Below are positions 4,089-51,325 of a stretch of DNA of 64,000 nucleotides, piece by piece; position 1 is the first letter of the stretch, and each line of letters starts with the position of its first letter. This DNA comes from Escherichia phage MET-P1-301, in sequence record PV700625, one strand, 5' to 3'. A program made the translations under genes and the position numbers. The notes under the pieces were generated by a model. That model was given only the letters and a program-made list of their open reading frames with translations, was not told the DNA's origin and searched no databases.

Positions 4089-4163
4089 TCTAGAAATCAG
4101 TGTCAACAGTTTTTTAGAGTTCTGCGTAAATTGCGTCACAAATATCACGAAAATCATGATTTG

Positions 4164-4600: not shown

Positions 4601-4629
4601 TTTATACTAAATGCAGCTTTTACCTTTTA

Positions 4630-4872
4630 CTATGATGTAACTTGCTGCGCTATTGCCGCATACATCTTGATAAATTCTGCGCAAACGGCCTTCGTAGTGG
4701 ACTTTCCAGCTAGTTGGAATCTTTTTCCCGTATCCGGTAGCAGTTTTTGGAGTCCTGCTACTTGCCAATCTAAGATATGTTGCTCAGCTTGTAAATCTTC
4801 AAAGTGCATCACACCATCAACATAGTGACGTAGAGTGACATTTAAAGTACGACCGTTGTTAGTAGTATACAT
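4630..4872 (-). CDS. hypothetical early protein (80 aa)
   Basis: ORF preceded only by the SD part of the cassette (catttttgaatctcctagtttaagg). Confidence 0.45.
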   Translation of the reverse strand: MYTTNNGRTLNVTLRHYVDGVMHFEDLQAEQHILDWQVAGLQKLLPDTGKRFQLAGKSTTKAVCAEFIKMYAAIAQQVTS

Positions 4873-4895
4873 TTTTGAATCTCCTAGTTTAAGGC

Positions 4896-5054
4896 TTATT
4901 TTGACAGTTCACTAATTAAGACATCAAAGATTATATCATTATCTGCTACAGTTGCAACACCAGTGATATAATCAATTTCTAAGATAACAACAACTTTCGT
5001 ACATAAACCGTCATCTATATCATTCCAGACAACTTTATCACCTGCACAAAACAT
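4896..5054 (-). CDS. hypothetical small protein (52 aa, MFCAGDKVVWNDIDDG...)
   Basis: Hand-translated ORF below the 60-aa track cutoff, directly behind a family-A leader at 5055-5132. Confidence 0.4.
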   Translation of the reverse strand: MFCAGDKVVWNDIDDGLCTKVVVILEIDYITGVATVADNDIIFDVLISELSK

Positions 5055-5132
5055 TTTTTGAGTCTCCTAGTTTAAGGACTTTATTTAGTAGGGAGGTTAT
5101 TGCCTCCCCGTTGATGTGTAATTTAATCTATC
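5055..5132 (-). promoter_or_regulatory. Early-gene leader cassette, family A
   Basis: GGGAGGttattgCCTCCCC hairpin plus SD context. Confidence 0.55.
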
Positions 5133-5144
5133 TAAAAATCAGTG

Positions 5145-5477
5145 TCAACAGTTTTGTTTTCGTTTGCTCAATTCTTGAACAATTACAGCGTAGTAGTCTT
5201 TTAAGTCACTGATATTTAAAGCATTTATCAGAGAATTATAATCATCGACTAACTGGAAATCATCCTTGAAGATGTCACTTATCTGATAGGTTTTCGCTTT
5301 GAATCTGAAGCTCATCTCTAGCCGCTTTATTTGCTCATCACTGAGACGCCCTAGAAAGCTCTCTACAAGGTTATTGCTAACCTGCTGTGTGATTGCCTTA
5401 TTTGCTAGATTATAGGCTTTATATGCCTTATATAGCGCGAAAATGGCAATGATTGCAGTGATACCAGTCATTAACAT
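5145..5477 (-). CDS. hypothetical membrane protein (110 aa)
   Basis: N-terminal hydrophobic helix (GITAIIAIFALY). Confidence 0.45.
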   Translation of the reverse strand: MLMTGITAIIAIFALYKAYKAYNLANKAITQQVSNNLVESFLGRLSDEQIKRLEMSFRFKAKTYQISDIFKDDFQLVDDYNSLINALNISDLKDYYAVIVQELSKRKQNC

Positions 5478-5550
5478 GGTGTTTCCTCTTTACGTGATAC
5501 TTTGCCATTTACAGTTATCTCATAAGATTCTAATAAATCGCTTTTAGACT

Positions 5551-5766
5551 TTACAGGGCTTTTAAAAGTATCATCATAAACATTGACTTGCAATACAGGT
5601 TTTTATACTCCCTGCAACTATTCCATAAGCAAATCACTACACGACGGCCTTTGATTTTTCCGTGTAACCATTCCATAACATCATGACTATTCCTTGATGT
5701 TTCAATAAAATCAATTTTGTTGAGTAACTTGCTTAGATTTTCACGGATTTTATTTGATAATTTCAT
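5551..5766 (-). CDS. hypothetical early protein
   Basis: ORF behind a family-B-like leader; C-terminus may be frameshifted. Confidence 0.35.
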   Translation of the reverse strand: MKLSNKIRENLSKLLNKIDFIETSRNSHDVMEWLHGKIKGRRVVICLWNSCREYKNLYCKSMFMMILLKAL

Positions 5767-5850
5767 TTTTGAATCTCCAGTTTAGGATTTAGTGGTAAAG
5801 CTCTTTATCTGGGGCTATCTTAACAGCTTGATAACCCCATGTAAAGAAAT
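5767..5850 (-). promoter_or_regulatory. Early-gene leader cassette, family B variant
   Basis: GGGGCTATC...GATAACCCCA hairpin variant plus the conserved downstream block. Confidence 0.5.
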
Positions 5851-5854
5851 CTAT

Positions 5855-6367
5855 TTAGTTCTTAAAGATATTCATCACTGAATCTTTTAATGATTCCAAG
5901 CGTTCTAACACTTCAGATTCTGCGTCTGCGTTGTTCACTTCCTCTTTTAACCTATCCTCTAAATCATCGCCGTCACTATAGCACCAGTCGAAAGCATAAC
6001 CAATATAAAAGCTATCTAAAACCGTGTTGCCATTTGCATCTACAACTTTCGCGGCAATGTTATACTCTGAAGCCTCTAAATCTCTTTCTAGTTCTTTTTG
6101 TAAGCTTGTATAAGCCTCTTTTGATGGATTTTCCCGGCCTTGTTTTGCGTAGTCACTTGAAAGCTGTTTAAGGCTGTAATGTAAAGGGATTGCATATTTA
6201 AATTCATTATGCTGGCAGTTAGGATTTTTAACAGTCACACCGCCTTGATGGTCATCTGTAAATTCCCAATTATCAAGATTATGGCTTGCTTCAAAGCAAT
6301 TAACAGCTTCATAGATAATAGTGAATTTTTCTTTTACAACTTCAAAGGTAGCGTCTACAGTTTTCAT
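5855..6367 (-). CDS. hypothetical early protein (170 aa)
   Basis: ORF with family-B leader upstream. Confidence 0.5.
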   Translation of the reverse strand: MKTVDATFEVVKEKFTIIYEAVNCFEASHNLDNWEFTDDHQGGVTVKNPNCQHNEFKYAIPLHYSLKQLSSDYAKQGRENPSKEAYTSLQKELERDLEASEYNIAAKVVDANGNTVLDSFYIGYAFDWCYSDGDDLEDRLKEEVNNADAESEVLERLESLKDSVMNIFKN

Positions 6368-6450
6368 TTTTGAATCTCCAGTTTAGGATTGAGTAGTAAG
6401 TTCTTTATCTGGGGCTTAAGATATCAGCTTTTAAGCCCCTGTAAAGTACT
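6368..6450 (-). promoter_or_regulatory. Early-gene leader cassette, family B
   Basis: GGGGCTTAagatatcagcttTTAAGCCCC hairpin plus conserved block. Confidence 0.55.
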
Positions 6451-6453
6451 TTA

Positions 6454-6744
6454 TCAGTTAATTTTCAGTTTTGCATAGCCTCTCATTGTACGAATGGGGG
6501 ATGTTAAGGCTACGCGTCTAATATATGCCTTTTTCGTGTATACATTTGTCTTCCCGATAGTGTTTACACATGTAAAAAGGTTTATTGGTGAATTTTTTAA
6601 TTTCAACTGTCTATCAGTCTTCACGCCCCATCTTACATCAGATTGTTTTCCGTTGTCAACCACTTTCCCGCCTAACTTTTTCGCCATGATGCGAGCGTCA
6701 TCACGAGTTTTTGCAGGAACTACAACGTTTTTGATAATAGCCAT
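6454..6744 (-). CDS. hypothetical early protein (96 aa), basic
   Basis: ORF with family-B leader upstream. Confidence 0.5.
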   Translation of the reverse strand: MAIIKNVVVPAKTRDDARIMAKKLGGKVVDNGKQSDVRWGVKTDRQLKLKNSPINLFTCVNTIGKTNVYTKKAYIRRVALTSPIRTMRGYAKLKIN

Positions 6745-6830
6745 TTTTGAATCTCCAATTTAGGATTGAGTAGTAAAGCTCTTTATCTGGGGCTTACTTT
6801 ATCGAACTATAAGCCCCTTGTAAAGTACTT
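6745..6830 (-). promoter_or_regulatory. Early-gene leader cassette, family B
   Basis: Near-identical to the copy at 3725-3810. Confidence 0.55.
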
Positions 6831-6832
6831 TA

Positions 6833-7213
6833 TCAGTTAATTTTGAATATTGTCACATAACCATCACTACCAATTATTTGAGACGCTCCAGCTTTCTCCA
6901 CTGAATAGCCCATATTTTCAAGATGGTAAACAGCATCATCATAACCATATGCGCCACCTTGATAACGTCTCTTATTGCAGCTTATCAGGTTTTTACCACG
7001 TCCTGCCAGTGCATTCAGTACGGCTTTTTCACTTGATAACGTACCGTCTATCATTGTTGCCGTGTAATGGTTGATTTTATTCCCGTTGATATCATACTTG
7101 AAATTAAACGAGTGAACAATAATAACGTTACCTTTAAATTTTTCATCAAGTGCCTTCTCCAGTGCGTTGCGGAAGTTGTCTTTGTTGATGAATTTCGGTG
7201 CACGATAAGCCAT
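6833..7213 (-). CDS. hypothetical early protein (126 aa)
   Basis: ORF with family-B leader upstream. Confidence 0.5.
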   Translation of the reverse strand: MAYRAPKFINKDNFRNALEKALDEKFKGNVIIVHSFNFKYDINGNKINHYTATMIDGTLSSEKAVLNALAGRGKNLISCNKRRYQGGAYGYDDAVYHLENMGYSVEKAGASQIIGSDGYVTIFKIN

Positions 7214-7298
7214 TTTTGAATCTCCTAGTTTAAGGTTAATGTAGTAAAGCTCTTTATCTGGGGCTTAAGATATCAGCTTTTAAGCCCCTGTAAAGTAC
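7214..7298 (-). promoter_or_regulatory. Early-gene leader cassette, family B
   Basis: GGGGCTTAagatatcagcttTTAAGCCCC hairpin plus conserved block. Confidence 0.55.
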
Positions 7299-7301
7299 TT
7301 T

Positions 7302-7508
7302 TTATTTATCGTAGTAGTAAATTGCTGTCTGTCTTGTAAACTTCTTAGTGTTTCTTGTAAGGTAGCAATTAGAATTAATAGCCGTTTCTACATAGTTGCA
7401 ATAGTCGGCTTCTGATATTCTGGACCATACGCCACAGATTTTCATGTAAAAACGTTTTGCCTTTGTGTTAACGTTAGTTGTAACCATTAATTCACGATAG
7501 TAAGTCAT
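7302..7508 (-). CDS. hypothetical early protein (68 aa), first gene of the leftward early array
   Basis: ORF behind an SD-only cassette remnant (7509-7560). Confidence 0.45.
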   Translation of the reverse strand: MTYYRELMVTTNVNTKAKRFYMKICGVWSRISEADYCNYVETAINSNCYLTRNTKKFTRQTAIYYYDK

Positions 7509-7744
7509 TTTTGGATTCTCCAGTTTAGGAAGTGGGCTGGCTTGCCCGTCTGATGCAAATATTAGATAACCATACTCAAAGAGTCAATAGGAATTTTAAA
7601 AATATTTTTGCAAAAACTGTAATGAAACGGGCGCACGCGACTACCACAAAACAGAACTACAATCAAGAATTATTTTTCAATCCGCTACAAATTTTTCTGT
7701 TGACTTTTATTTCCAGATGTGGTAGCCTTGTGAGAAATGGCGAC

Positions 7745-7945
7745 ATTCCCACCTGCACCCACCTACCTGCACAATTCTAAAATGATTTTTCTTGCCCGAC
7801 CTGAGCGGGGTCTGCACGTTTTGAAAATGAAAAAGCTCTTTGGAGATTACCTGCACAATTTGAAAATGAATTTTCTCTTTGGAGTTCAAAATTTTCTCTA
7901 CAGATTTCTCTACAGAACTCTACCTGCACAATCCTAAAATAAAAA
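7745..7945. repeat. Three ~25-bp direct repeats (ACCTGCACAAT-NNN-AAAATGA) in a 500-bp non-coding gap; candidate early promoter / operator cluster
   Basis: Copies near 7757, 7848 and 7921; CTCTTTGGAG also duplicated. The gap separates the small-ORF array from the 8015-37323 block. Confidence 0.45.
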
Positions 7946-8014
7946 GCCCTCCTTACCTGAAAAATTTAACAGATAAGAAAGGCTTAGTCTATTGTGAATA
8001 TCCTATAGAGTTTC

Positions 8015-8800
8015 TTAGTTCTTTGCGTCTAAGAAGGTAACTTCCGGTGAAGAGAAAATTTCCTCAACATTCTCATCAGTTCTTGCATAGATATATGTGT
8101 CTGCATCACTGCCAAATGTTACTGCAATTCTGTGATTGCTCTTCGACAGGTGGGTAACTAGAGCGTTACTTAGAGACATCTTTTCAACCGGAGGGTTACT
8201 TTGATGTATCTTGCCTTTTCTTCGTCTGAAGAGGGTAACTGCATCATCAGTGAACGTTACTACACCTGCAAAGTATTCTGGTTCACAGTAGTTCTTCCAA
8301 CCTGAGCGTAACTTGTGGTACATCTCCCCTTCGTAGACATACAGATAGACATCTACATTCTTCATCACCTGATTAATGATAACGGTGACGGCTTGAGGGT
8401 CAAGTCCACCGATGCCTGCACCAATCATAGGTAAACCGACTTTCTTCAACTGATTAACTTCACAGTATCTGTTAAGCTGTTTCAAAGATGATTCTAAAGC
8501 ACTGTATCGGGCATCTTTACCAGTCTTAAGCTGAGTGTAAAGGTTAGCTATACGGCCTTGTTTTAAACGTGCTACAGAGAAATTACCTAGTAAGTTCTCA
8601 CAGGGCTTGTGGCCTATGCCACCTGCATACAGATAAACTTCTGTATCAGTCTCATATGCTTTTGGGTAAAGTTTAGAAATCTTGTCAGCGATACCTGCAC
8701 CCATTAAATTCATACAGTTGCAACCGTGACCAATGACGTCAAACTTACCTTTATCAAATGCGGCAAAGATATCACCATTGATGATTTTTACAATACCCAT
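8015..8800 (-). CDS. Macro-domain protein (TARG1/Poa1p-like ADP-ribose-processing domain) with an unassigned C-terminal extension
   Basis: N-terminal half carries GDIF...DVIGHGCNCMNLMGAGIA...LPMIGAGIGGLDP, matching the TARG1-type macrodomain pattern as I recall it. Confidence 0.6.
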   Translation of the reverse strand: MGIVKIINGDIFAAFDKGKFDVIGHGCNCMNLMGAGIADKISKLYPKAYETDTEVYLYAGGIGHKPCENLLGNFSVARLKQGRIANLYTQLKTGKDARYSALESSLKQLNRYCEVNQLKKVGLPMIGAGIGGLDPQAVTVIINQVMKNVDVYLYVYEGEMYHKLRSGWKNYCEPEYFAGVVTFTDDAVTLFRRRKGKIHQSNPPVEKMSLSNALVTHLSKSNHRIAVTFGSDADTYIYARTDENVEEIFSSPEVTFLDAKN

Positions 8801-9001
8801 TTAACATCTCTCCCAAGATTCTTTATCTTCTGAAGGTTTTACACGTTGTCCTTCATGGTCTACCCAGATACATCCACAACCTTCACAGATTACTGGCATT
8901 GCATAGCCAGCTTTAAAGTCATCTTCAGTGATAAGACCTTTTAAGTCACCTGTATCACGTCCGAACATTTCGATAGCACAGTCTTTGCAGAAGTCAGCCA
9001 T
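8801..9001 (-). CDS. hypothetical Cys-rich small protein (66 aa)
   Basis: CxxC...CEGCGC pattern suggests a zinc-binding fold. Confidence 0.4.
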   Translation of the reverse strand: MADFCKDCAIEMFGRDTGDLKGLITEDDFKAGYAMPVICEGCGCIWVDHEGQRVKPSEDKESWERC

Positions 9002-9227
9002 GAATAATTACCTCTTGAGTGATGATGCCTTTACCACAGCGACTTTTAAAGTCTCCTAATGGTTCAGAGAAGAAGTCACGGAAATGGTTACTGCACTCAC
9101 GTTTCATCACCTTCTTGTAAGTTAACACATCTTCTCCTGTAAACGGGACGACTTCATGTCTCCCTTTGAATACTGCTGAACTTACAATCTTACGTGTCTT
9201 TTTATCTCTGGCTAGTATTACTTTCAT
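8994..9227 (-). CDS. hypothetical protein (77 aa)
   Basis: ORF tightly packed in the operon. Confidence 0.4.
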   Translation of the reverse strand: MKVILARDKKTRKIVSSAVFKGRHEVVPFTGEDVLTYKKVMKRECSNHFRDFFSEPLGDFKSRCGKGIITQEVIIHG

Positions 9228-9242
9228 AGTTTACCTTCTCAG

Positions 9243-9527
9243 TTAGCTCATATAAATCAACATGCTCAATGCTATCAATGTTGATACCAATCTTTTGAAG
9301 CGTTCTATCACTTCGTTGTCAGTCATCCATATCAGACACCAATGATTGTGGATGGATTCTTCAAGGAGGTCAACACAATCTTTAAAAGTTTTTGTATCAC
9401 TTCTTGTTCCTACTACTGCGATTGTGCCATATAGCCACTTACCATTGCCATAAGATATTTGTGCTACACCAACTTCTTTATCTTTCTCGTAGTAAATGGC
9501 TACAAAGTCTCTTCCATTAATCTGCAT
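9243..9527 (-). CDS. hypothetical protein (94 aa)
   Basis: ORF in operon. Confidence 0.4.
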   Translation of the reverse strand: MQINGRDFVAIYYEKDKEVGVAQISYGNGKWLYGTIAVVGTRSDTKTFKDCVDLLEESIHNHWCLIWMTDNEVIERFKRLVSTLIALSMLIYMS

Positions 9528-9529
9528 AG

Positions 9530-9799
9530 TTACTTCCTCGTTTTGAGAACTGCTAAGATTTCTTTAGAGTCTGGTAAGAACCATGTGTAGTGATTCTCTT
9601 TGATTTCTGGATGAGTGTCAACCTTTATTTTGCACTCTTTACCAACGTGCTTAAGCTGTGCTGTGACACCTTGCATAAAGATATGACACATCACATTATC
9701 CATAATGGTTGGTAAGAAGTCAATTCGCATATAAGTTTCTTTTGGTCGTGGTAACAGTAAGTAACCTTCTACGTAAAAAGTATCTTCATTCTCTGTCAT
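9530..9799 (-). CDS. hypothetical protein (89 aa)
   Basis: ORF in operon. Confidence 0.4.
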   Translation of the reverse strand: MTENEDTFYVEGYLLLPRPKETYMRIDFLPTIMDNVMCHIFMQGVTAQLKHVGKECKIKVDTHPEIKENHYTWFLPDSKEILAVLKTRK

Positions 9800-10065
9800 T
9801 GCTGTTTGTTTCCTAATAAAATCATATCAATAAGGTTATTAGCTTTGATTGTGCACTGGTAGAATCCATCACGGTAAAACTCAAGGGCTGCTGCCACATC
9901 ACTACCGGTATTACCTTTGACAGTGAATCTTGACTCCTCTTGAGTGTACTTGTCACTCTCACTTACTTGGGAGTTTTTGAATGTACTGTTCACTTTGTTC
10001 GTTGAACACCCTGACATAATTATCAGTAACACAAACATTATAAAACTCTGGCTTAGTTTTTTCAT
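9796..10065 (-). CDS. o-spanin (Rz1-like outer-membrane lipoprotein), starts inside the i-spanin gene
   Basis: Signal peptide with lipobox (LLIIMSGC); start at 10065 lies within the Rz-like ORF in another frame. Confidence 0.55.
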   Translation of the reverse strand: MKKLSQSFIMFVLLIIMSGCSTNKVNSTFKNSQVSESDKYTQEESRFTVKGNTGSDVAAALEFYRDGFYQCTIKANNLIDMILLGNKQQ

Positions 10066-10306
10066 ATGTTAGTACCTCTTTTGTATGCTTATTCTTAGCA
10101 AGCACATCTTTCAAATCATTTTTGTAATTGGTGCTGAGTGTGGCTAAACCTTCCTGATAAGCATCTTTAGCAACACTTATTAGTTTCTCATTGCTTAACT
10201 CAGCTTCAGCAACTTGGTAGTCTCTGTAAGAGTATCCTCCCCAGACACCTGCCCCAACTAAGAAAACAATTATGAAAGTAGCTTGACAGAACTCTTTAAA
10301 TGTCAT
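9959..10306 (-). CDS. i-spanin (Rz-like)
   Basis: N-terminal transmembrane helix (FIIVFLVGAGVWGG) followed by a charged coiled-coil-like region; overlapped by the lipoprotein ORF. Confidence 0.55.
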   Translation of the reverse strand: MTFKEFCQATFIIVFLVGAGVWGGYSYRDYQVAEAELSNEKLISVAKDAYQEGLATLSTNYKNDLKDVLAKNKHTKEVLTYEKTKPEFYNVCVTDNYVRVFNEQSEQYIQKLPSK

Positions 10307-10320
10307 TTAACAATCTCCTG

Positions 10321-10347
10321 AAATGAAAAAGGCTCCCGAAGGAGCCT
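10321..10347 (-). terminator. Intrinsic terminator (UUCG-tetraloop hairpin plus U-run on the minus strand)
   Basis: AGGCTCCcgaaGGAGCCT; minus-strand reading gives hairpin then TTTTTCATTT. Confidence 0.6.
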
Positions 10348-10358
10348 GTATCTTAACC

Positions 10359-10838
10359 TTAACCGAGGACTTTAGCAAGGATATTTGCAGCCATCGAAGA
10401 AGCTTTTGCAGCAGCAACTACGCCAGCTTTGACAGTGCTATCCTTAATAGCAGATACCGTTGCAGCATCAGTAAAGAGATAAGTGATTGTTTTAGAACCA
10501 CTCGTAAAGGAAAGCATAAGAGTAGTTTCCAGATTGAAAGAGCGATACGGAGCACCTTCTTTAACGATACCTTCAGCACCTAACTCTGAAGCCTTACCCA
10601 TATCATAGATAGTCATCAGGTTTTCTTTGTGTGCAGTCGTTGAACCAGCACCTTTTACGTGCTTCTTAACGTTCAACAATGCACGATATTCACGAATACT
10701 GCCATCAGCTTTTACATTAACAGCACGGAAAATTTTACCTTCAAAGTTACCTTGAATCATTTTACGAACTACTTCAGATTTGTTTGCCGTATCGTCCAGT
10801 GCTACCGTAATGATATTGTTCATAAGTTTTTCTCTCAA
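10359..10838 (-). CDS. hypothetical protein (159 aa)
   Basis: ORF; no motif recognised. Confidence 0.45.
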   Translation of the reverse strand: MREKLMNNIITVALDDTANKSEVVRKMIQGNFEGKIFRAVNVKADGSIREYRALLNVKKHVKGAGSTTAHKENLMTIYDMGKASELGAEGIVKEGAPYRSFNLETTLMLSFTSGSKTITYLFTDAATVSAIKDSTVKAGVVAAAKASSMAANILAKVLG

Positions 10839-11530
10839 TGTTTAACTAACATGGTTTTAATGTGTGGAAGGATTCTGTTAACCTTGTGAACATTCTTCTC
10901 TGTATCTTCTATAAAGCATACTATATTAAAATAAGGAAGAATGCAAGACTGAATCATCCTCACTTTTAAACTTTCTGCACTTATAGAGTTAGTTCCAAAA
11001 CCACGCATAAAAAGCATGTAATCATGTTCTATGTTATGCCTTAAAAACATCTCAGTAGGTATTCTCTGAGATTCACCTCTCGCTGTCAAGAGTCCAATGG
11101 CAGCATGATTAGCAATTGCATCAATAATACTAAAAACATATGTTGGTTTTGCTCTTACAGAGTCAAGAAGATTAGTGTACTGTGAGAATGACCCATCAGT
11201 CAATTCCGTTGAGCAATCTTCGTGATTAAAATTTGTAAGAACACCATCAATATCTGCTAAGATGAGGTTACCTTTTTCTACAAGGTCTTTATTGACTATA
11301 ACTAAACTATCACGCCTTACACCTATAGCTTGTCCAGTCTCTTTGTCCACGACGTTCACAATTGGTTCTGATGTGTGAAACTCTTCAAGTGAACATACAA
11401 CTTCTCTTGCAGTGTCTTCAAAATCCCTGCACTGTTCTGGAGTCCATACACAGGAATCAAGACCTAACTCATGAGGATGCAAGTCATAAGCGTGGCACAG
11501 GACTTCATCAGACTTTCTTAATTTTTTCAT
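10835..11530 (-). CDS. HAD-superfamily phosphatase / nucleotidase-like protein
   Basis: HAD motif I LILADIDGVL in the C-terminal half. Confidence 0.45.
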   Translation of the reverse strand: MKKLRKSDEVLCHAYDLHPHELGLDSCVWTPEQCRDFEDTAREVVCSLEEFHTSEPIVNVVDKETGQAIGVRRDSLVIVNKDLVEKGNLILADIDGVLTNFNHEDCSTELTDGSFSQYTNLLDSVRAKPTYVFSIIDAIANHAAIGLLTARGESQRIPTEMFLRHNIEHDYMLFMRGFGTNSISAESLKVRMIQSCILPYFNIVCFIEDTEKNVHKVNRILPHIKTMLVKH

Positions 11531-12055
11531 GATTTACCTTAGAAATGTTTGTTGCAAATTCACATTGAGCGATAACTTTCATATTGTTATAGACATCTTG
11601 AGAGTATTTCTTAGCTTTAGGAATTTTGTACGAATACCCAGCATTATATGATGCTAAAACTTTTGTAAAGTCTTCTTTGACTTTGGCTGACCATGCACCT
11701 TTGTCCAAAACTCAAGCTCTTTATGTGTCTCTTTTGCTGCATAGTCAAAATCTTTTAAGAGTTTCTTTTTAGCCACATTAGGACTAATTTTGTTACGCTT
11801 TACAACAGTCTTCAAGTGATTCTGGAAAATACCATAGTCGTGGGTCTTTTTATTCTCTACCTTCAGACCTAACTCTGACTCTTGTAAGGCTATAGCTACT
11901 AGAGTAATACCCCAGCCTTTCCCCATATTATTCTCACCATACTGGTAAGCTTTTAACATGTTAACTTTTTGGCTAATTGATAGCTCTGGGCAGTCAACTG
12001 CATAAGATAAGTGTGCTGTAAACATTAAGCACAAGCCTAGAATCAATTTCTTCAT
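11508..12055 (-). CDS. Lytic transglycosylase (SLT domain) with signal peptide, candidate endolysin; apparent frameshift near 11700
   Basis: Signal peptide MKKLILGLCLMFTAHLSYA; SLT motifs ALQESELG, GIFQ and, in the overlapping 66-aa ORF, AYNAG. Confidence 0.55.
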
Positions 12056-12118
12056 TGGTTCTCCTGTTTAGTTCATCGTGACAACAATTATACAGCACTC
12101 TGCACAAAATACAAATAA

Positions 12119-12146
12119 AAAGGCCGCCGAAGCAGCCTTTTAAGAA
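12119..12146 (-). terminator. Possible weak terminator hairpin after rIIB
   Basis: Imperfect GC hairpin AGGCCGCCgaaGCAGCCT flanked by A/T runs. Confidence 0.3.
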
Positions 12147-12154
12147 ATTACTTA

Positions 12155-13264
12155 TTAGATTTCACGTTTACGTTGAGAGATAAGTTCACCAGCAGTGCCA
12201 ACGATGACATGCAAAGCTTCAGTCTTACCATCCCATACTTTCAGCACTTTACGTTGATTATCAACGATTGCTGCAACTTCATAACGAGAGGAACGCATCT
12301 TCATATCGTTGTAATCAGTTGGAACAGATACAACATCTCGTGGATGGACACGAACCTTCAGGATGGTATCACCTGAGAAGCAACGAACATAATCCCAAGC
12401 ACCAACATGAAGACCTTGAGAGCAAGTTACGTTACGGTTGTTATCAACCATCCAACGTGGCATCTCTACAATGTTACCTAAATCATTAGGTACTTTGTAG
12501 GTGTGAGAGTCAACCAGCTTGCCTTCACGAGTAGAGACTTTCTTCCAACCAATGATGTAGCCTTCTTCATCAATTTCAACATCAAGGTGAGATACAAATC
12601 CCCAAAGTTGTTCTACAGAATCTTTAGATGGGTTTTCCATCAGTTTTTCGAAGAACATTACAAGTCGTTCAAAACCTTTATCACCAGTTTTCATCATGTG
12701 AAGAATACGGTCAACCAGAGTAGAACGCATCTCAACAGCACCGTAGAAGAGCTTGTCACCTTTGATTGTGATAGCACCCTGAGTGAAGTTTTCGATAGAC
12801 TTACGAATGTTCATCAGTTCAAATGCTTTCTTGAACTCACCTTTCACAACATGAACTACAATTTCTTGATAGTTCGGATGAGTAGACTCAACAATTTCAG
12901 ATTCTGAACCGTAAGTCATAATTACAGAGTCGCCAGTAATCATGTACTCAATCTTGTCATCTTTCTGCATAGCTTCGTGCAGTTTATTTACTGGAGCTTT
13001 CTGTACAGCGTCTTTAACTACCTTTTCAACTGGTTTGTCAGCTTTCTTCTTAAAGGTCTTAGCAACTTGCTTCAAAGTCTTCGTAGCTGGTGTAGAAGCA
13101 ACCTTTTTCTTACCTTTTAAGGTTGCTTCATGACGCTCTACAGCACGACCAACTGAACGGGTTGAAGTATTAAATTTCTGTGCAATAGCTGTTTTAGTCA
13201 GCTTACCTTCTTTAACCAGTTTGTAAATTTCTGCGTCAATCTGTGCTTTAGTTTTAGTAGTCAT
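12155..13264 (-). CDS. rIIB: rIIB-like protein
   Basis: C-terminal two-thirds matches recalled T4 rIIB blocks (LFYGAVEMRSTLVDRIL, ENPSKDSVEQLWGF, TCSQGLHV, KVRVHPRDVVSVPTDYNDMKMR); sits directly downstream of the rIIA-like gene. Confidence 0.8.
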   Translation of the reverse strand: MTTKTKAQIDAEIYKLVKEGKLTKTAIAQKFNTSTRSVGRAVERHEATLKGKKKVASTPATKTLKQVAKTFKKKADKPVEKVVKDAVQKAPVNKLHEAMQKDDKIEYMITGDSVIMTYGSESEIVESTHPNYQEIVVHVVKGEFKKAFELMNIRKSIENFTQGAITIKGDKLFYGAVEMRSTLVDRILHMMKTGDKGFERLVMFFEKLMENPSKDSVEQLWGFVSHLDVEIDEEGYIIGWKKVSTREGKLVDSHTYKVPNDLGNIVEMPRWMVDNNRNVTCSQGLHVGAWDYVRCFSGDTILKVRVHPRDVVSVPTDYNDMKMRSSRYEVAAIVDNQRKVLKVWDGKTEALHVIVGTAGELISQRKREI

Positions 13265-13343
13265 CTTATTACTCTCTCTTGTTAGTTAATAAATCATTTT
13301 GTAAGGCTATTCTAAGGGGCTTTGAAGCCCCTTGTCAAACACT

Positions 13344-15709
13344 TTAATCGTAAACTGTAGTTCCTTCTGGAACACACTTCACATCAAAGCCTAAGAACTT
13401 ACTCACTTCGATGGGTGACACTTTATTCCAATCTAAATGAGAAAGCAAGAAGTTTTCTTGTTTTCTTTTTGAAAGGTAGTTTGTCACCTTAATAACCATA
13501 CGGTCACCAGCTTTCTTAATTTTCTTGTAAAGCTTTGTATCGTTGTCAAGACAGTCTTTCAAAGTTTTCAATACACTAATAGTATAAGTGTATGCAAATG
13601 GTGCAGCAACGTATTGGATTTTACCGAACATTGCCTCTACAGCCTCTTCATTACCTTCTAGGAAGATAGTTTTGTTTGTATCCCGTGAATAGCAATAACC
13701 ACGAGAAATCTTCCTATTATTGAATGTAAAGTTTCTGGCAATAATCCAGCTACTTGTAAGGTCAAGAACACCATTCATATAGATGCGTGTCATATACCTG
13801 TTATGATTAATCCAATGAACATCAGTTAAGCTGTCGTTCAAGAGCTTCTCATCTACTTCAATCCAGTCTTCTGGTATCTTTTTCCAATTTGCTTTTCGGA
13901 AAACATAGACTGTCTTTCCAATAACATTAGCAACTGACTTAGCTACATCTTCTGGGGATGAGCAAAAACATTCACCATCAACTGTGTCACCAATTGCCTT
14001 AATGTAAAGCTGAGGTTCTTCAATTGTGTCTAAGTCCTCTGACACCTCTTTGTAGGAGGCTACACCTTCTGCTGGAACAGCTTTCCAGAGTTTTACAACA
14101 CCTCTTACAGCTTCTTTACGCTGGTAATGGTGTTCCTTATCAGACATTTTCACAATCTTTAACAAGCTTTTATCAAGTTTGTGCAGATTGATTAAGTCAT
14201 CTAACTCTTTTTCAGTCGAGAATACAAAGACAATACCATTGTATCTGTGAAACAGACTTGACTCACTGGCATAGTCTCGACATGCACCACGCAAGATTTG
14301 GTTGCGTCCTACAGTCTTCTCAGTACCATTTTTATTGCGACGGTCATTTATAACAAACAAAAACTGTTCAATTTGGCTTTTACGCATTGCGCCAAAGATA
14401 TTGAACATACTTGCCTCTTGAGTGTAGGAAAGTGCTGTTGCACGAATCTTACTCTCTAAAGAGTTGAACTTGACATAAGCAACTGGGTCATAAAGATAAT
14501 CTACTTTAGGGATGTTGTTTCCGTTCCTATCAACCTTAATATTACCTTTACCGTCACGTTCATAAATGACTGAGCCGTCTTCTGCGTAGATAATTCCACG
14601 ACGAATGTTTAGTAATTCTTCTTCCAGAGAATCAAGCTTAACGCCTCCCCACTCTAACTTTGGACACACAGCATTAAACATCTCTCGTGAGTTCAAACGT
14701 AACTCAGCATAAGCCTGTGCAGCATCCATGAGTGTAGGTTGACTGTTAACTTTCTTGATAACATCCTTTGTAATTGCTTCAGTTATCTTTTAGTAGCCTC
14801 AATGATAACATTTTTTGTCGTGTCATTCATCTGCAATGCTTCACGAGAAGCTGCAATAGCGACTGAACCAATAGGCATGTAGATGTTTACAAGGTCTACG
14901 CTCCTACGGAAAAATTCTGGCAATACTTTGAAGAAATCATCACCAAGTAATGCTTCCATGTTAACAGGGTAGGCAATGTTACCCATCACCACATTAAACT
15001 CTGTCCTGTTACCACTAGAACGCCAGCTTTGCTTATGAATCATGGCATCATAAACACCCTCTTCACGGGCAATGACGTTCATATCTGCTAATACATCGTC
15101 GTACACAATATTACTTTCTGGTTTTACAGCAAAGTATGAGTATACATTACCAGCTTCTTCAAAGAACTTTGAGATACGGTGGTCAGCAACTGCCACACGT
15201 ACAGCTAAACCATTAGGTTCTTTTGTTGGGTTAGTGGTCAGCTTAGTTACTTGAGGAATACCATTCTCAAGATAAACAGAGTACTTATTAACAACACCAT
15301 CAACATAGCTAGATACTGTGAATGACTGAGCAATTGCAAATGGTGACTTTGAGCCGATACCCATTGCACCAATGTAATCATTGGAGTCATTCTTCGTAGA
15401 AGCTCCGTAGTTCAGATACAAACTCATTACTTTGTCATGGGTTAAACCAGTTCCAAAGTCACGGACTTCAAAGTAAGGCTCAAAACGAGTAGGTAAATGC
15501 ACATGGAACGGGATGTTCTCTTTTCCAGCTTCTTTCTGAGCATCTACTGCGTTACATGACAGTTCACGAATCACTGCCCTTTCTTTAAAGGTATATACAC
15601 CAGAACTCAAAAGGCTGAACATCTCAGGTGTCATTGTAATCTGTGCTTGAGACGTCTCTAAAGAAGTTGAACTCTTAATCACTTCTGCGTGGTCATTTAC
15701 CATGCGCAT
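13344..15709 (-). CDS. rIIA: rIIA-like protein (N-terminal GHKL ATPase fold), two ORFs probably joined by a frameshift near 14730-14785
   Basis: 14783-15709 has GHKL-type motifs (RELSCNAVDA, RDFGTGL, YIGAMGIGSKSPF, AIAASREAL) recalled from T4 rIIA; 13344-14729 continues; combined ~780 aa; rIIA-rIIB synteny. Confidence 0.7.
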
Positions 15710-20161: not shown

Positions 20162-20428
20162 TTATTTAGCCTTCTTATTACGTTTACGGTTACGAGCTTT
20201 CTTAGCTGCTCGTTTAATAGCTGCTGCACCAGACGGACGGTGGGCTTGTTTCTTACCACCTTTGCCACGGCCTACATAGATGTAAGGCTGCTGTTCAATT
20301 TGGCTTGTAAGAACTTGTGCAACTGCTGAAGCATCTACACCAACCTGCTTTCCAGTCATAGAAATGATTGCTGCTGCTTTTGCCAGTGCCTTCAAGAATC
20401 CAGCTTTCATATTACCTAAAATTCCCAT
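20162..20428 (-). CDS. hypothetical highly basic protein (88 aa, Lys/Arg/Ala-rich C-terminus)
   Basis: Compositional bias suggests nucleic-acid binding. Confidence 0.4.
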   Translation of the reverse strand: MGILGNMKAGFLKALAKAAAIISMTGKQVGVDASAVAQVLTSQIEQQPYIYVGRGKGGKKQAHRPSGAAAIKRAAKKARNRKRNKKAK

Positions 20429-20443
20429 TTTTAGTCTCTCTCA

Positions 20444-20764
20444 TTAAAGTTTAATACAGAACTTATGAAGTTCTTCTTCAGTAACTGTGACAACTTTATC
20501 ATCAACACGTAAGTTTGTCGCGTAAAAATTTGAGAAATGCGCTTTGTGTTTTACTTTAAATACTCCAGCAGCCTCAATACATTTCAATGCTTCCATACCA
20601 GTGGAGTCAAACAGACTTTTAGTATAGACTTTCCACTCTTCAATGGTTTCTGGATTTACTTTGTAACTACCAAATAGTGACATGTTACAGTACGACATAA
20701 CAAACTCACCGCGTTTGAATCCACCGCTACTCTGCTCTCCATTGACAGTCACCTTGCCAGCCAT
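20444..20764 (-). CDS. hypothetical protein (start set at internal Met to avoid nrdG overlap)
   Basis: Track ORF 20444-20845 overlaps the nrdG 3' end by 119 nt. Confidence 0.35.
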   Translation of the reverse strand: MAGKVTVNGEQSSGGFKRGEFVMSYCNMSLFGSYKVNPETIEEWKVYTKSLFDSTGMEALKCIEAAGVFKVKHKAHFSNFYATNLRVDDKVVTVTEEELHKFCIKL

Positions 20765-30680: not shown

Positions 30681-30773
30681 TCATACACGGCTCCCAATTA
30701 TATTTCTTGAAAGAGAAATTATCTTTTGGATTTCTCTCTTGATAAGCTATCCAGAAATGCTGTTCCATTAGCT

Positions 30774-37548: not shown

Positions 37549-40275
37549 ATGGGGTTAATGATTTTAGAGGGAGTAAAAATGGAAAACGTAGATTTTAAAA
37601 ACTTACATTTGGTTGGTGATACAGAAACTGATGGTTTACTCCTTGAGTTCACTAAAGTTCACGTAATGGCCTTTGCAGACTATAAATCTGACGATGAAGA
37701 GCCACCTGTATGGGTCTTTACAGATGAGCCTATCCTCGGTCACAAGTACACTAAGTACATTAAGGGTGGTTTACGTGAAGGTGTTGAGTTTGCGTTAAAG
37801 GCAAAACGACTTTGTATCCATAACGGCCTCGGTTATGACTGGTGGGTCTTCAATCACATTGCACCGGATTTATGGAACTTTGATAATCCAAAATGTAAGC
37901 CGTGGAGTAATTTCTTTCAGGATTCTCTTATTCAGTCTCGTGTTCAGTGGATGGATAGACCAACTCCAAAGGGTTATAAAGGTGCTCATGGTTTGGCTGC
38001 ATGGGGTGCTCGCGTTGGTGTTCGTAAGCCAGAGATTGAGCATTGGGGTGTGTGGAATGCAGAAATCTTCACTCGTGTTGTAGAAGATATTCGTATTAAC
38101 GCCAAAACTAAACGTGCACTTGATAATGAGTATCTCAAGCTTAAGAAGTGTGGCATAGACACTTATGAGACTTACATGCGAGCTAAAGAAACATCTTTCT
38201 GGATGAGTCAACAGGCTATTAATGGCTGGAAAGCTGATAAAGAGCTTATGGAGTTCCATGTGAAGGAACTTGACAAATTGACTAATGAGCTTGCTTCAGA
38301 GGTTGAACCACATCTACCTCCAACTATTAAGACCAAAGGTAAAGTCACTGGAGAAGAGTTTGCAAAAGCTTGGAATGAGTATGTTGAAGCATTCGGTCAT
38401 GCAGATGGACTGAAGAGAATTACCAAGTACCCTAAGACAAAGTACCGTCAGCAGGTACGTAACGGTGAGATGCAGACATACGAAATCAAGCCATTTGGTA
38501 AGCCAACTACAAAGATTTTTAACATTGAAAAGAGGAATTGCTATACACCAACCAACTCTGTAACTGGTGAAGAGTACAAGGAAGGTTTTGTAGCAATGAA
38601 GGATGCTCGTGCAATTTGCAATGAGTTGAACGCAAAGATTGGTAAGAAATGCAAAGACTGGAAGCCAGTAAAAACAGTCAAAACTGTGAAGTACTATAAC
38701 AGTCATGTTGTTAACCACTTTGAGCTTGAGTCAAGTCGCTACACAGGATTGATTGATGCACCATATACACCAATTGAGTTTGAAGTTTCTCGTATGACTC
38801 AGGTAGCAGTTGTTAAAGACTACTTGAAGTCAGTTGGTTGGATTCAGATGACTGGAACTACAAGAAAGATTCAGACGGTCGTCCTGTCAAAGTTTGTCGT
38901 TTCAAAGACAACAAAAGATGATTACAAAGCATCCTAAGTGGCAGGAGATGGTTGAACGGTGTGGCTTGAGTTATGTTGAACATGAAGGTGTCCAGTACAT
39001 TGAGCATAACTGGTCTGTGAAGAAATACACAGATTTGCTTGAGCCTTGCTTAATCCGTACTTCACCAAAACTTACTGAATCTTCTTATGATACGATTGAA
39101 GGTGAGCTTGGACAGAAGATTGCTAAATACTATACTTTGATGCACCGACGCAGAACTATTGAGAACTCAAAGGATGATGAAAAAGGTTGGTTGAATCAGA
39201 TTCGTCCTGATGGTCGCCTTAGTGCTGGTGCAATGGTATTTGGTACTTCAACTGGACGTATGACACAATATGGTATTGTAAACGTACCGTCTGGTGCTGC
39301 TGTCTATGGGGAACCAATGAGGGCAGTGTGGATTTGTGAAGAAGGTACTAACGTTGTCTCTGTAGACATGAACTCAGCCCAGCTAGTTCTCCTTTGTAAC
39401 TTTATGGGTGACAAAGACTTCACCAAAGCAGTAACGCAAGGTAAAGAAGAGATTGAGTTCATTCGTCAAGAAGATGGACGCTATTACTGCAAACATTTTG
39501 ATGAGTACCTCAACCCAGAGATTGATAAGTACCTTCGTTATGACTCTGAGAATGACCTGTACGTTGTCTATTCAGGGACTGATGCACATACACTGAACAG
39601 TATTTACTTTAGCTTGAATGATGAGCAGGATATCTTGACTTGTCGAGCTACTCAGGATGAGAACCTTCTCCATGAGATTAGTAAGGGTCGTAAGAAAGCT
39701 AAGAATGGTATCTATGCACTGCTGTTCGGTGCAGGTGATGAGAAGTTTGCTAAGACGATTAAAGCTGCAACTACTCAGGAAGGCGCACTGACTAAACAGA
39801 CTTACTTTATTCGTTTACCTAAAATTAAGAAGCTGTTAGATGACTTGGAAGCTGACTACAAAGCAACTAAAAAGGCACTTGAAGAGGTGTTTGGTAAGAC
39901 TGCTGCAATCTCTAAAGGGGTTTTGTAAAGGTTGCTGGAGCTTGGTTGTGGTGTAAATCTCCACATAAGCTATTGAATTATTTGCTTATGGGTTCGGAGG
40001 CTCAGATTCAAAACGAGGCAATTAACCTTGCTTGTCGTCGTATGATTGACGAAGGTTTGATGAAGTTGAATGGTCGTCAACCAGCTATTGGTGCTCGTTT
40101 GCTCTGCGCATATCACGATGAAACAAGCTGGGAATGTCCAGAAAGTATGACGGCAGAAGTGAAAGCAGTTACTGACTGGTATTATGGACAAGCTTCTAAG
40201 AACTTAGGTCTTAAGAAAGAAACACTTGTTACAGGTACTGGTAAGGTTGGTAAAAGCTGGCTTGAGGTTCACTAA
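37549..40275 (+). CDS. Family-A DNA polymerase (T7-like) with 3'-5' exonuclease domain, encoded as three consecutive ORFs separated by apparent frameshifts
   Basis: Exo I motif VGDTETDGL; fingers/palm blocks STGRMTQYG, LLFGAGDEKFAKTI, LLCAYHDETSW (motif C); junctions at 38894-38937 and 39926-39946 (GGGGTTTT run). Confidence 0.85.
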
Positions 40276-43004: not shown

Positions 43005-43994
<990 letters not shown>

Positions 43995-44475: not shown

Positions 44476-44800
44476 GGTCTTTAAGAGGGTCTTTTAATAA
44501 GGTGGGGTGGGGTGTGGTGAGGTTTGGTTTGGTGTAGTCAGGTAAGGTATGGGTAGTTAGTCTCAGCTACATTAAAATGAGACTTACCTTTTAAAAGGTC
44601 TTTAAGAGGGTCTTTTAATAAGGTGCTGTATGGTGGGGTAAGGTAGGGTTAGGCGAGGTCAGGTGAGGTTTGGTATGGAAGGATGGCAGTAGCCTTATAA
44701 AAATCTGCCAAATAAGCTATAAAATCTGTTGACAAGTCAGGTGTTATAGCTTATTTTTATACCCAATGTAATACAAAATTTAATATAACTTTGAGGTCAT
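44476..44800. repeat. Second copy of the G/T-rich tracts plus ~80-bp conserved unit (44550-44630), followed by a promoter-like TTGACA
   Basis: Same unit as 43146-43226 with a partial third copy at 44468-44505; TTGACA-N17-TATTTT precedes the next gene. Confidence 0.6.
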
Positions 44801-46580: not shown

Positions 46581-46841
46581 ATGAAAATTGAACACTGCTA
46601 TGAGTCTGATGGAACACCTATCCGATGTCCACATTGTGGATGTACAGACTTGCAAGGTGAGGTAAGTGAGATAGTCAACGGTCATATCGCTGAAGAGAGT
46701 ACAAGGTGTACAGGGTGTAATGAAATCATTGCTTTCTGGGCTTATGGTTCATACCAACCTGCACCACACTTAATCTACCATAGCAATAAAGCTGTGAAGA
46801 ATGTTATCAACTGGTTCATTAAGAAAGGATTTACAAAATGA
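46581..46841 (+). CDS. hypothetical zinc-ribbon protein (86 aa)
   Basis: CPHCGC...CTGCN. Confidence 0.4.
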   Translation: MKIEHCYESDGTPIRCPHCGCTDLQGEVSEIVNGHIAEESTRCTGCNEIIAFWAYGSYQPAPHLIYHSNKAVKNVINWFIKKGFTK

Positions 46842-47383
46842 TTAAATTAATCTTTGCAAGTGGTGAAAATGGGGAGTTTGGTACTCCAACTGGTATGCCG
46901 TGGCCTCGACATAAACAGGATATGCAAGAGTTTAAGAGACTCACTAAAAACAACTTAGTAGTAATGGGGAATGAGACTTTCAAGACTCTGGGTAGTAAAC
47001 CTTTACCAGAACGTGCAAACCTCATCTTAACAAATTCTGTACCATACTTAGGCATAGACTTTGGCAAAGATGAGGTAATGTATGCTAAGGCTAGTAAAGA
47101 GTCCTTTGGAGCATTTTTGAAGTATCTTGATAGCTCTATTGATGAAGATGTCTTTGTAATTGGTGGTGCAGGTGTTCTTGTCGATGCTTTGCCGTATGCT
47201 GGTGTAGTTTTCCATACAGTTTTCCATAAAGTTACTGAAGAGGCCACTGTGTATTTACCTTTTGAAAACTTCTTTGAGAAGCTGTATGATAACCGTGTAT
47301 TTACAAAGGTACAGTCAAAACCATCAGAGGATGGTAAAGCCACCTTTGAAATTTATGTTCCACAAGTAAAAGGGCACTTTTGA
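46838..47383 (+). CDS. folA: Dihydrofolate reductase
   Basis: N-terminus IFASGENGEFGTPTGMPW and LVVMGNETFK resemble DHFR; sits directly upstream of thyA. Confidence 0.75.
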   Translation: MIKLIFASGENGEFGTPTGMPWPRHKQDMQEFKRLTKNNLVVMGNETFKTLGSKPLPERANLILTNSVPYLGIDFGKDEVMYAKASKESFGAFLKYLDSSIDEDVFVIGGAGVLVDALPYAGVVFHTVFHKVTEEATVYLPFENFFEKLYDNRVFTKVQSKPSEDGKATFEIYVPQVKGHF

Positions 47384-47384
47384 T

Positions 47385-48283
47385 ATGTCACAAGCAGATA
47401 CAAGTTACAAAAATATCCTGAACCATGTTTTATCAGTCGGTGAACTGCGTACTACACGAACTGGAGATGTTATCTCTGCATTTGCTCCACCTAAGTTTCG
47501 TTTTGATATGCGAACTGGTTTCCCGCTCTTAACATCTAAACAGGTGTTTACACGGCAAGTTATTGGGGAAGCTTTATGGTTCCTGAACGGTGAGAATAAG
47601 CTTGGTGAACTCCGTTACCGTACTTGGGGTGAAAATGATGGGGAACGCTGGACTATCTGGTCAGATGATTTTAAACGCTGGTTAAGTTCTAATTATTCTT
47701 CTGAACAAGATTGGTTAGAAGATGCAGGTGGGAGAATCTATGGGGTTCAGTGGAGAAACTTTGAAGGTCATAATGGTTGTGTTGTAGACCAGCTAGATAC
47801 CTTAGTAACGAAGATGAAGGGTGATATCACAGACCGTTACATGCTTGTTAATGCTTGGAATGCAGCAGATATTGCAGCAAACTCAATGGCTTTAGCACCT
47901 TGTCATGTTCTGTTTCAGATTTATATCACTAATGAGGGTGAAGTTGACTTACAGTGGTATCAACGTTCAGTAGACACCTTTTAGGACTTCCGTTTAATAT
48001 TGCGTCTTATGGTTTCATCTTAGAAGTTCTTTGTAAGATGACTGGATACACTCCACGGTACTTGATAGGTGTCTTTGGGGATACCCAGATTTATCAGAAC
48101 CATATGAAGCAGGTTTATGAACTGATGAACAATGAAGAGTTCCATGCACCTACTTTTGAGATTGGTGTACCACTTAACACACTAAGTGACCTAAAACACC
48201 TTACTGCAAGTGATTTTATTGGTGGCATTTACAACTACCAACATGCAGGAAAGATTGAAGCACCTCTGTCAGTAGGTAAGTAA
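47385..48283 (+). CDS. thyA: Thymidylate synthase, interrupted by a single-base frameshift in a T4 run at ~47975-47984
   Basis: ThyA blocks LAPCHVLFQ and, in the next frame, LGLPFNIASYG; restoring one T gives ...QRSVDTFLGLPFNIASY... Confidence 0.85.
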
Positions 48284-48325
48284 AAACAAAAAGGCTCCTT
48301 TTACGGGAGCCTTAAAATTTTATTT
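48280..48325. terminator. Bidirectional intrinsic terminator at a convergent gene junction
   Basis: AAGGCTCC-loop-GGAGCCTT hairpin with T runs on both strands, between thyA and the leftward late operon. Confidence 0.65.
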
Positions 48326-48964: not shown

Positions 48965-51325
48965 TTAAGCAGTTCTTACCCAAGCCATTAACTTATAGAA
49001 CTGGTTAGTAACACTAAATGCTGAACCAGAACCAGTACCACCTGTGTTACCACTAACTGTGTGGCTGTGAGCACCAATACCAACAGTGTGGCTGTGGTTA
49101 CCTGTTGTATTCGTTACACCAGACCAGTTTCTTGATGCGTTGAAGTTGACAGGGATACCATTAGTAAAGTTGTTACCAGTATACCCTTTAGAACCTGCCT
49201 GACTACCGAGGTAGAATGCACCACTTGCTGTGTAGAAGCTACTAGCGTCACTTCTGAAGTAACCAAATGAACCAGTAATCTCCATAGTACCTCTGTTGTG
49301 GTTGTGGTTACCAGTTGTGCTAGAGGTCTTAGTACCATAGTCAAATGATGAAGTGGTAGCAGAGAAACTGTGTGTATGTGAAGGTAAGTTACCAACAGAT
49401 AACGTTACAGAGTCTGAACCACCAGTTGTAGCAACATCTGAACCGTTTGCTGCTGCAATTCTAATAGTTCTACCAACACCATTGTTCAGGTACGTCCAAG
49501 TTAGACCAGGAAGTGCTGTATTAGGGTTAACATTACTGTTAAACCACGTTACAATACCTACTGGATAGATTTTATTCAGGTCTGTAGAGTCACTTACTGC
49601 CTGTGCAATCCTCTGGTCAGTTTCAGCTTTAGTGTATGCACCGATATCTGAAGGTGTTGGTTTATCTTTGTCTGTATAGATTTTAGACCAAGCACTCTCA
49701 AAACCATAACCGTCTCTTGCTGACCTATACCAAAAACCACCATTGTTGTAGTTAAATTTTAGCTGAGCCGCTGGTGTAGAACTGCTACCCTGATACATAT
49801 GGTAGACCAGTTGTGTTGAACCACCAGATTTCCCTGTAACATTATACAGACCAGTTTTAGCATTCCAAGCAATGCCATCACTATCACCTACCTCTGTACC
49901 AGTGCCAGAAGAATAAGCAAGCATATACCTAGAGTTTGCGGTAGATTGCGTGTAATATCTAGCATCTAGGTTAGAGAAATCTGAAGGTTGAACTTGACCA
50001 GTGATTGCTAAAGTTGCATTCATTTCGAATGATGAACCAATGTTAAGCCCTTTACCTGTCTTGTAGTTATACAGGTTTAAGATGTCGCTGGCATCACCAT
50101 TCCCAACATACCACTTGCTAGTTCCATCAGCAGATTTACCTCTAATAAACAATGACGTTACAGTTTTTGCTTGTAACGCAAGGGCTTCGCCATCAGAGTT
50201 AATAATCTGCTGCGCAGAGAATGTGTTAACAGCATTAGTTCTTGCAATCGTACTTAATGTTGCTGCCGGAATATATCTAGAGTCAATGTTAGCCCAATCT
50301 GAAGGTTGGACTTGTCCAGTGATTTGCACAGTTTTATTGATACCAATAGTAGTACCTAGCGAAACCTGTGAACCTGCAAGGTAGTTATAAATATTTAGAC
50401 GTGTCTCGTCAGAATCTGTACCAACATACCATTTATTTGTTCCATCAGACTTCTTACCGAGAATGTAAAGTGCTGTACTTGCATCAGTATTCTGCAAAGT
50501 AATAGCATTAGCATTCTTCTTAGCAACAAGGTTAGTGAAAGTGTTAGCACCTGTAAAAGTGTTATTACCAGCTAACTGTGCAAATCTCTGATTAGCAACT
50601 GTCTGAGTAAAGTATCTAGCATCTAAGTTAGAGAAATCTGAAGGTTGAACTTGTCCAGTGATTGCTAAAGATTTATTAACAGAGATGTTGCTTGCAATAG
50701 TCAAGGCTGAATTGTATTTGTTATTATACAACTTCACTTCATCAGAGCCATTACTACCAATACCAACCCACCATCTAGCCGAACCATCTAGGTTTACACC
50801 TTCGATATATTGTGCATTATTTGCATTTTGGTTTCTAAGGCGAAGTAAGTTAGCATCACCTTGAATATTTTGAGTTCCAGAGAATGTGTTTGTGATAGCA
50901 ATTCTTGCGTATCTTGCATCATTCTCTTCATTAGTTCTCATACCAAGCTCATTAGGACTTGGCTTATTCAGAGTATGATAAACAGTTGCTGACCTTGAAG
51001 CATCTGCAATAGTTAGTTTAAGACCATTTGCGTTAATTTTAAAAGTCTTTAAAATATCCCCAATAGTAATCTCAGAAGAGCCTGTAGGGTCAAATACAGC
51101 CTTACCACCATAAAGTAACTTGACAATACCTAAATCCCCAGTCATAGTGCTTCCAGCAATCTGAACAAACCTTTCTAGTTTGAAGGAAGCTAAGAAGTCT
51201 TGATAGGTCATTCTACGGTCTTCATCACCCAACATTTCAGGTCTTTTCTTAACTCTGATGTGCAATAGGTCTTCTGAACGAATTGTGTCGATTGAGTTTA
51301 ACTGACTCAATTTGTAATCTGCCAT
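48965..51325 (-). CDS. Tail fibre protein (786 aa) with C-terminal His-x-His repeats
   Basis: Repetitive beta-rich sequence with NLDARY repeats; C-terminal HTHSFSATT, GNHNHNRG, GNHSHTVGIGAHSHTVSG recall T4 gp37-type tips. Confidence 0.7.
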   Translation of the reverse strand: MADYKLSQLNSIDTIRSEDLLHIRVKKRPEMLGDEDRRMTYQDFLASFKLERFVQIAGSTMTGDLGIVKLLYGGKAVFDPTGSSEITIGDILKTFKINANGLKLTIADASRSATVYHTLNKPSPNELGMRTNEENDARYARIAITNTFSGTQNIQGDANLLRLRNQNANNAQYIEGVNLDGSARWWVGIGSNGSDEVKLYNNKYNSALTIASNISVNKSLAITGQVQPSDFSNLDARYFTQTVANQRFAQLAGNNTFTGANTFTNLVAKKNANAITLQNTDASTALYILGKKSDGTNKWYVGTDSDETRLNIYNYLAGSQVSLGTTIGINKTVQITGQVQPSDWANIDSRYIPAATLSTIARTNAVNTFSAQQIINSDGEALALQAKTVTSLFIRGKSADGTSKWYVGNGDASDILNLYNYKTGKGLNIGSSFEMNATLAITGQVQPSDFSNLDARYYTQSTANSRYMLAYSSGTGTEVGDSDGIAWNAKTGLYNVTGKSGGSTQLVYHMYQGSSSTPAAQLKFNYNNGGFWYRSARDGYGFESAWSKIYTDKDKPTPSDIGAYTKAETDQRIAQAVSDSTDLNKIYPVGIVTWFNSNVNPNTALPGLTWTYLNNGVGRTIRIAAANGSDVATTGGSDSVTLSVGNLPSHTHSFSATTSSFDYGTKTSSTTGNHNHNRGTMEITGSFGYFRSDASSFYTASGAFYLGSQAGSKGYTGNNFTNGIPVNFNASRNWSGVTNTTGNHSHTVGIGAHSHTVSGNTGGTGSGSAFSVTNQFYKLMAWVRTA

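Follow-up and report, generated by a model that had tools for sequence, protein, structure and literature searches.

The closest described counterparts of the locus analyzed here are the td genes of the phages wV8 (ACJ71900.1) and Barry (CAD5160380.1), whose loci share 97% DNA identity and the arrangement frd-td-terminator-convergent gene with the window, i.e., the entire 64-kb stretch of DNA under study. In both phages td carries a run of five T residues (T5) and is a single ORF, whereas the window has four (T4) at 47979-47982 and its td is divided into 199 plus 100 codons. The td gene of phage T4, which contains a group I intron, also has a discontinuous coding sequence; there, however, an intron is inserted, while the td of the window has no inserted sequence and lacks a single base. 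A similar group I intron was accordingly rejected for the window, where td holds no extra DNA relative to its intact relatives and no intron family matched at an E value of ≤1. A third point of comparison is provided by long-read-only phage assemblies, in which homopolymer errors, frameshifts in coding regions, and a DNA polymerase appearing as three annotations have been described (PMC10438801). The window resembles those assemblies in having a DNA polymerase split in three, apparently by homopolymer errors, and differs from them in that its errors would be almost exclusively deletions.

The window belongs to a Felixounavirus (FelixO1-like myovirus) and is 95 to 98% identical to wV8 and H12, the td region being 95 to 97% identical to >200 Felixounavirus genomes. 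Over its 64 kb it is collinear with wV8 segments 39810-88487 and 1-14926, joined in that order and reverse complemented, and its gene order and content are complete compared to wV8 and H12. In wV8, Barry, and H12 the order is frd, td (299 aa), terminator, convergent small gene, and long tail fiber, and so it is in the window. The ends of the wV8 record (88487 and 1, which meet upstream of rIIA) are crossed without a break at window position 15634/15635; either the wV8 linearization point would not be a physical end here, or the genome may be circularly permuted or assembled from a different start. At 30686-30729 the window lacks the HNH endonuclease gene g113 (about 525 bp), which in wV8 separates the exonuclease gene from g114; here the flanks are only ~44 nt apart. 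The gene is missing from H12 too, and its presence or absence is evidently a typical mobile homing-endonuclease polymorphism.

The interrupted td gene

The features of the locus, with their supporting evidence, are as follows.

46838..47383, plus strand: frd (dihydrofolate reductase), intact, 181 aa, directly upstream of td (PF00186; synteny with wV8, Barry, and H12)
47385..47984, plus strand: td/thyA N-terminal piece, 199 codons plus a premature TAG (ORF list; PF00303; alignment to solved thymidylate synthases)
47979..47982, plus strand: T4 homopolymer, site of an apparent one-base deletion; T5 in every relative examined
47981..48283, plus strand: td/thyA C-terminal piece, 100 codons plus stop, in the frame one base back (PF00303)
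48284..48320, unstranded: hairpin terminator (so annotated in wV8 and Barry) separating td from a convergent 123-aa gene

As given, td/thyA is not a single uninterrupted ORF. The ORF at 47385..47984 (199 aa) ends in ...WYQRSVDTF followed by TAG at 47982-47984, the window reading ...TGG TAT CAA CGT TCA GTA GAC ACC TTT TAG at 47955-47984. The frame that starts at 47981 continues with TTA GGA CTT CCG TTT AAT ATT GCG TCT TAT (LGLPFNIASY), reads LGLPFNIASYGFILEV..., and is open to a stop at 48281-48283. Profile matches to PF00303 cover positions 2 to 173 on the N-terminal piece (E = 5e-46) and 174 to 266 on the C-terminal piece (E = 5e-19). The two matches meet at 173/174, indicating that nothing has been lost between them, a junction not expected by chance.

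A preliminary description had attributed the break to one T missing from a T run. This is borne out by wV8 and Barry, both of which have CC-TTTTT-AGG within a stretch that is otherwise identical to the window at 161/161 bases. The run itself had been correctly picked out; its coordinates, put at ~47978-47981, were one base too far to the left, since CTTTTA occupies 47978-47983 and the TTTT run hence corresponds to 47979-47982. Adding one T to this run yields, as also proposed, a continuous ThyA, encoded by a 900-nt ORF of 299 aa.

The restored protein scores 199 bits against TIGR03284 (cutoff, 108.35), differs from the wV8 td product by four residues, and aligns over its full length with solved thymidylate synthases (E of about 1e-48 to 1e-42). 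It shares with these structures (6auj, E. coli 1aob/2tsc, and phage T4 1tis) the APCH, YQRS-D-FLG-PFNIASY, and GD-xIY-NH blocks, and Cys173 (catalytic, in APCH), Arg194 (YQRS), Asp197, and Asn205 (PFNIASY) match their conserved columns. It differs from them by a phage-specific insertion of ~30 residues (about 80 to 110), which other Felixounavirus td proteins have as well and which is thus not particular to the window. Cys173 and Arg194 are carried by the N-terminal piece, while LGLPFNIASY with Asn205 and the DTQIYQNH block are on the C-terminal piece. Asn205 therefore lies only after the stop and is reached only if the frame is restored. To judge by its sequence, this is an ordinary Felixounavirus td gene, and in the actual phage it almost certainly has T5 at the site and encodes a normal 299-aa ThyA-type thymidylate synthase.

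Homopolymer shortening across the window

Alignment of the whole window to wV8 revealed repeated gaps of the types T6 to T5, T5 to T4, A6 to A5, A5 to A4, and G4 to G3, with example deletions at window positions 38917, 39921, 56426, 59769, 60377, 24353, 25946, 30834, and 17831. Clean one-base homopolymer indels were counted in the window against wV8 and against H12, with the comparison of the finished H12 and wV8 genomes as the control.

Window versus wV8: 58 deletions, 4 insertions
Window versus H12: 53 deletions, 7 insertions
Control, H12 versus wV8: 13 deletions, 7 insertions

The per-run rate, calculated as the proportion of wV8 runs that are one base shorter in the window, was then as follows for each run length.

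Length 2: window versus wV8, 3/5487 (0.05%)
Length 3: window versus wV8, 2/1294 (0.15%)
Length 4: window versus wV8, 9/374 (2.4%); control, 0/485
Length 5: window versus wV8, 19/104 (18%); control, 0/141
Length 6: window versus wV8, 16/27 (59%); control, 1/45

The indels in homopolymers are thus strongly biased toward deletions, which become more frequent as runs lengthen. A/T runs of 6 number 20 in the window and runs of 7 are absent, compared to 73 and 3, respectively, in wV8 (88 kb). Deletion rates were alike for T and A (T5, 11/63 versus A5, 5/37; T6, 10/20 versus A6, 6/7), so an A-versus-T strand asymmetry was discarded and the errors point to no particular platform.

In coding regions, the shortened runs amount to a pattern of which td, as first suggested in the preliminary description, is one case: there are 48 frameshifting indels in 33 annotated wV8 coding sequences (CDSs), and H12 agrees with wV8 at nearly all 48 sites. 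The DNA polymerase, tape measure, deoxynucleoside monophosphate (dNMP) kinase, and g114 genes have three each and nrdB has two; rIIA, baseplate hub, nrdA, nrdD, exonuclease, prs, and nadV are among those with one. Two of the genes with three indels illustrate the effect.

37549..40275, plus strand: DNA polymerase, 906 aa in wV8, here ORFs of 462, 344, and 109 aa
58333..60560 (approximate bounds), minus strand: tail tape-measure gene, 742 aa in wV8, here several ORFs

The polymerase deletions are at about 38846, 38917 (A5 to A4), and 39921 (G5 to G4), and those in the tape-measure gene are at about 58669, 59769 (T5 to T4), and 60377 (T6 to T5). In the control pair, by comparison, indels within CDSs were either locally compensated +1/−1 pairs or located in the last codons of the gene. 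It is established for tailed phages that loss of the polymerase, the tape measure, and the baseplate hub together prevents a virulent myovirus from propagating.

We also examined selective constraint by projecting the window on 66 wV8 genes (15,727 codons) with the indels neutralized. Codon differences between the window and wV8 were 1423 synonymous versus 278 nonsynonymous, and there were no true nonsense substitutions in the 15,727 codons. Two stops flagged in rIIA and g105 were rejected as projection artifacts at locally compensated indels, both regions being open in one frame. Essential genes are broken without other signs of decay.

Taken together, the near absence of insertions, the confinement to homopolymers, the dependence on run length, the involvement of essential genes, and the constraint otherwise seen in the genome argue for under-calling rather than evolution. 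The td frameshift is thus very probably a base-calling or consensus error in which a homopolymer was under-called by one base, a technical cause that we infer from the sequence. The consensus of this FelixO1-like genome would systematically read homopolymers one base short, as is usual in assemblies built from long reads only or otherwise left unpolished. The T5 run of td would have been read as T4, creating an apparent frameshift in a gene that would really be continuous and lie beside frd, as it does in every relative. Since only ~18% of 5-base runs are under-called, an error at any one such site is not guaranteed.

These observations matter only as a quality flag for the window, with ~50 one-base under-calls affecting about a fifth of the 5-base runs and over half of the 6-base runs. 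Any gene call, pseudogene, or frameshift claim made from it must first allow for such under-calls, and other frameshift or pseudogene findings from the window should be read as instances of the same artifact.

Alternative accounts of the td frameshift

A true one-base deletion, arising by replication slippage from T5 to T4 and inactivating td in one isolate while host ThyA supplies dTMP, appears improbable, although it survives best among the alternatives. The product would be an inactive protein of 199 aa without Asn205 and the C-terminal third. Such a deletion would take the T4 run at face value, and homopolymers are natural hot spots for slippage. The td gene is dispensable in thyA+ hosts, as exemplified by phage T4 td, so that its loss would be tolerable, unlike that of the polymerase or the tape measure. 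If the frameshift were real, the loss would be trivial, concerning a dispensable gene of phage nucleotide metabolism, and would touch no open biological question.

Against a true deletion, no matching Felixounavirus or related record contains T4 at this site. A search with the 80-nt T4 context in 50,697 phage records gave 458 matches, none of them at 100%; the best 11 of the 458 differ solely by the extra T. A natural T4 allele was found in 0 of the 219 phage records matching the locus, nearly all of which are Felixounavirus. H12 has T5 at the site and an intact td. The same is true of a Logan contig (L007) with an identical dihydrofolate reductase followed by an intact 299-aa td, although at only 96.9% identity to the window this contig comes from a further relative rather than from the phage itself. 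Three IMG/VR contigs have T5, and the exact 43-nt T4 pattern had no match in IMG/VR. When JGI/ENA metagenome contigs were searched with a T4-or-T5 pattern, one contig matched, the ENA contig ERZ781270 (44-nt match), which has T5; no T4 copy was found. The same pattern had no match in 185,579 bacterial and archaeal species genomes (GTDB), and an exact-protein look-up of the 199-aa td fragment returned no match.

The site moreover fits the technical pattern seen throughout the window. Weighing the ~18% under-call rate at T5 runs against a natural T4 frequency of <1/219 favors an artifact by roughly 35:1. Nor does the 3′ part of td show any relaxation of constraint: over the 100 codons past the shift, the ratio of synonymous to nonsynonymous differences is 9:2 versus wV8 and 16:2 versus H12, the same proportions as in the 199 codons ahead of the shift.

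That the whole genome is a decaying, nonfunctional phage remnant, with td among a set of true pseudogenes, is highly implausible. Many genes are indeed interrupted, but the lesions are almost all one-base homopolymer deletions, gene order and content are as complete as in wV8 and H12, and the exact td context is absent from the bacterial and archaeal species genomes searched. Genome-wide pseudogenization is contradicted by the substitution pattern, in which nonsense changes are lacking and the strong synonymous excess denotes strong purifying selection. Felixounaviruses are virulent and are not known in an integrated form.

Equally hard to credit is that the T4 run is real and a full-length enzyme is produced by recoding, either through −1 slippage of tRNA-Phe on C-UUU-UAG or through transcriptional slippage with insertion of an extra U. 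The exact wild-type peptide DTF-LGLPF would result from a −1 shift at UUU|UAG, and A-site stop codons are able to favor such shifts. Efficient transcriptional slippage, on the other hand, requires a run much longer than four T residues. In the zero frame, GAC ACC TTT TAG, there is no slippery heptamer of the form X XXY YYZ, the folding energy of the downstream region that might hold a stimulatory structure (47985-48064) is −13.1 kcal/mol versus a shuffle mean of −13.07 (z = −0.01), and no Rfam element matched in the td frameshift region. A two-frame arrangement is not kept in the relatives, all of which have one continuous frame with T5; the same flanks surround the in-frame T5 in all of them, indicating that nothing here has evolved for recoding. 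The same kind of break also occurs in 32 other genes. Programmed −1 frameshifting is thus rejected, given the absence of heptamer, structure, and conservation. There is likewise hardly any chance that a physically real T4 run allows low-level ThyA synthesis by tRNA-Phe −1 slippage at C-UUU-UAG, remaking DTF-LGLPF; were this true, a metabolic gene would have been rescued by spontaneous recoding.

Terminator, tail fiber, and repeats

The td terminator (GGCTCC-TTTTAC-GGGAGCC) has three homopolymer-length changes compared to wV8, A6 to A5, T5 to T4, and A3 to A4, with indels at 48293, 48299, and 48317; the A3-to-A4 change at 48317 is a +1 change, of which the window has very few. The terminator also gave a weak, subthreshold Rfam hit to the Histone3 stem-loop (18 bits, with the gathering score at 34), which reflects the chance similarity of a hairpin.

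The long tail-fiber gene (48965-51325, minus strand) is intact and encodes 786 aa. Its central segment at 49664-50231 (~570 nt) was not matched by blastn in either wV8 or H12, and an identical 786-aa protein was not found in the public protein collection. This segment is probably a host-range-determining mosaic segment. Another region, 20283-20727, beside nrdG, is unmatched in wV8 and only partly matched in H12. Minus-strand ORFs of 133 aa and 88 aa overlap this region, the 88-aa one being very basic with a Lys/Ala-rich C terminus.

A family of direct repeats is present in many copies at ~1600-7300, ahead of small early genes, and corresponds to the elements annotated as DR_1 to DR_9 in wV8. 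Examples are located at 1616-1690, 2219-2260, 2770-2846, 3722-3826, 4510-4620, 5056-5148, 6745-6844, and 7211-7301, and the repeat core reads ...TTTT(A/G)GAATCTCC(T)AGTTT(A)AGGA...TTAGTGGG(G)AAGGT.... These elements look like promoters or regulatory sites, and several of the indels between copies are probably true repeat variation and not errors. Finally, G/T-rich imperfect repeat tracts of short GGT/ATGG-type units lie at 43100-43300 and 44500-44700, each beside the palindrome TACCTTTTAAAAGGT; they correspond to wV8 DR_4, flank g94-g95, and are very indel-rich between phages.
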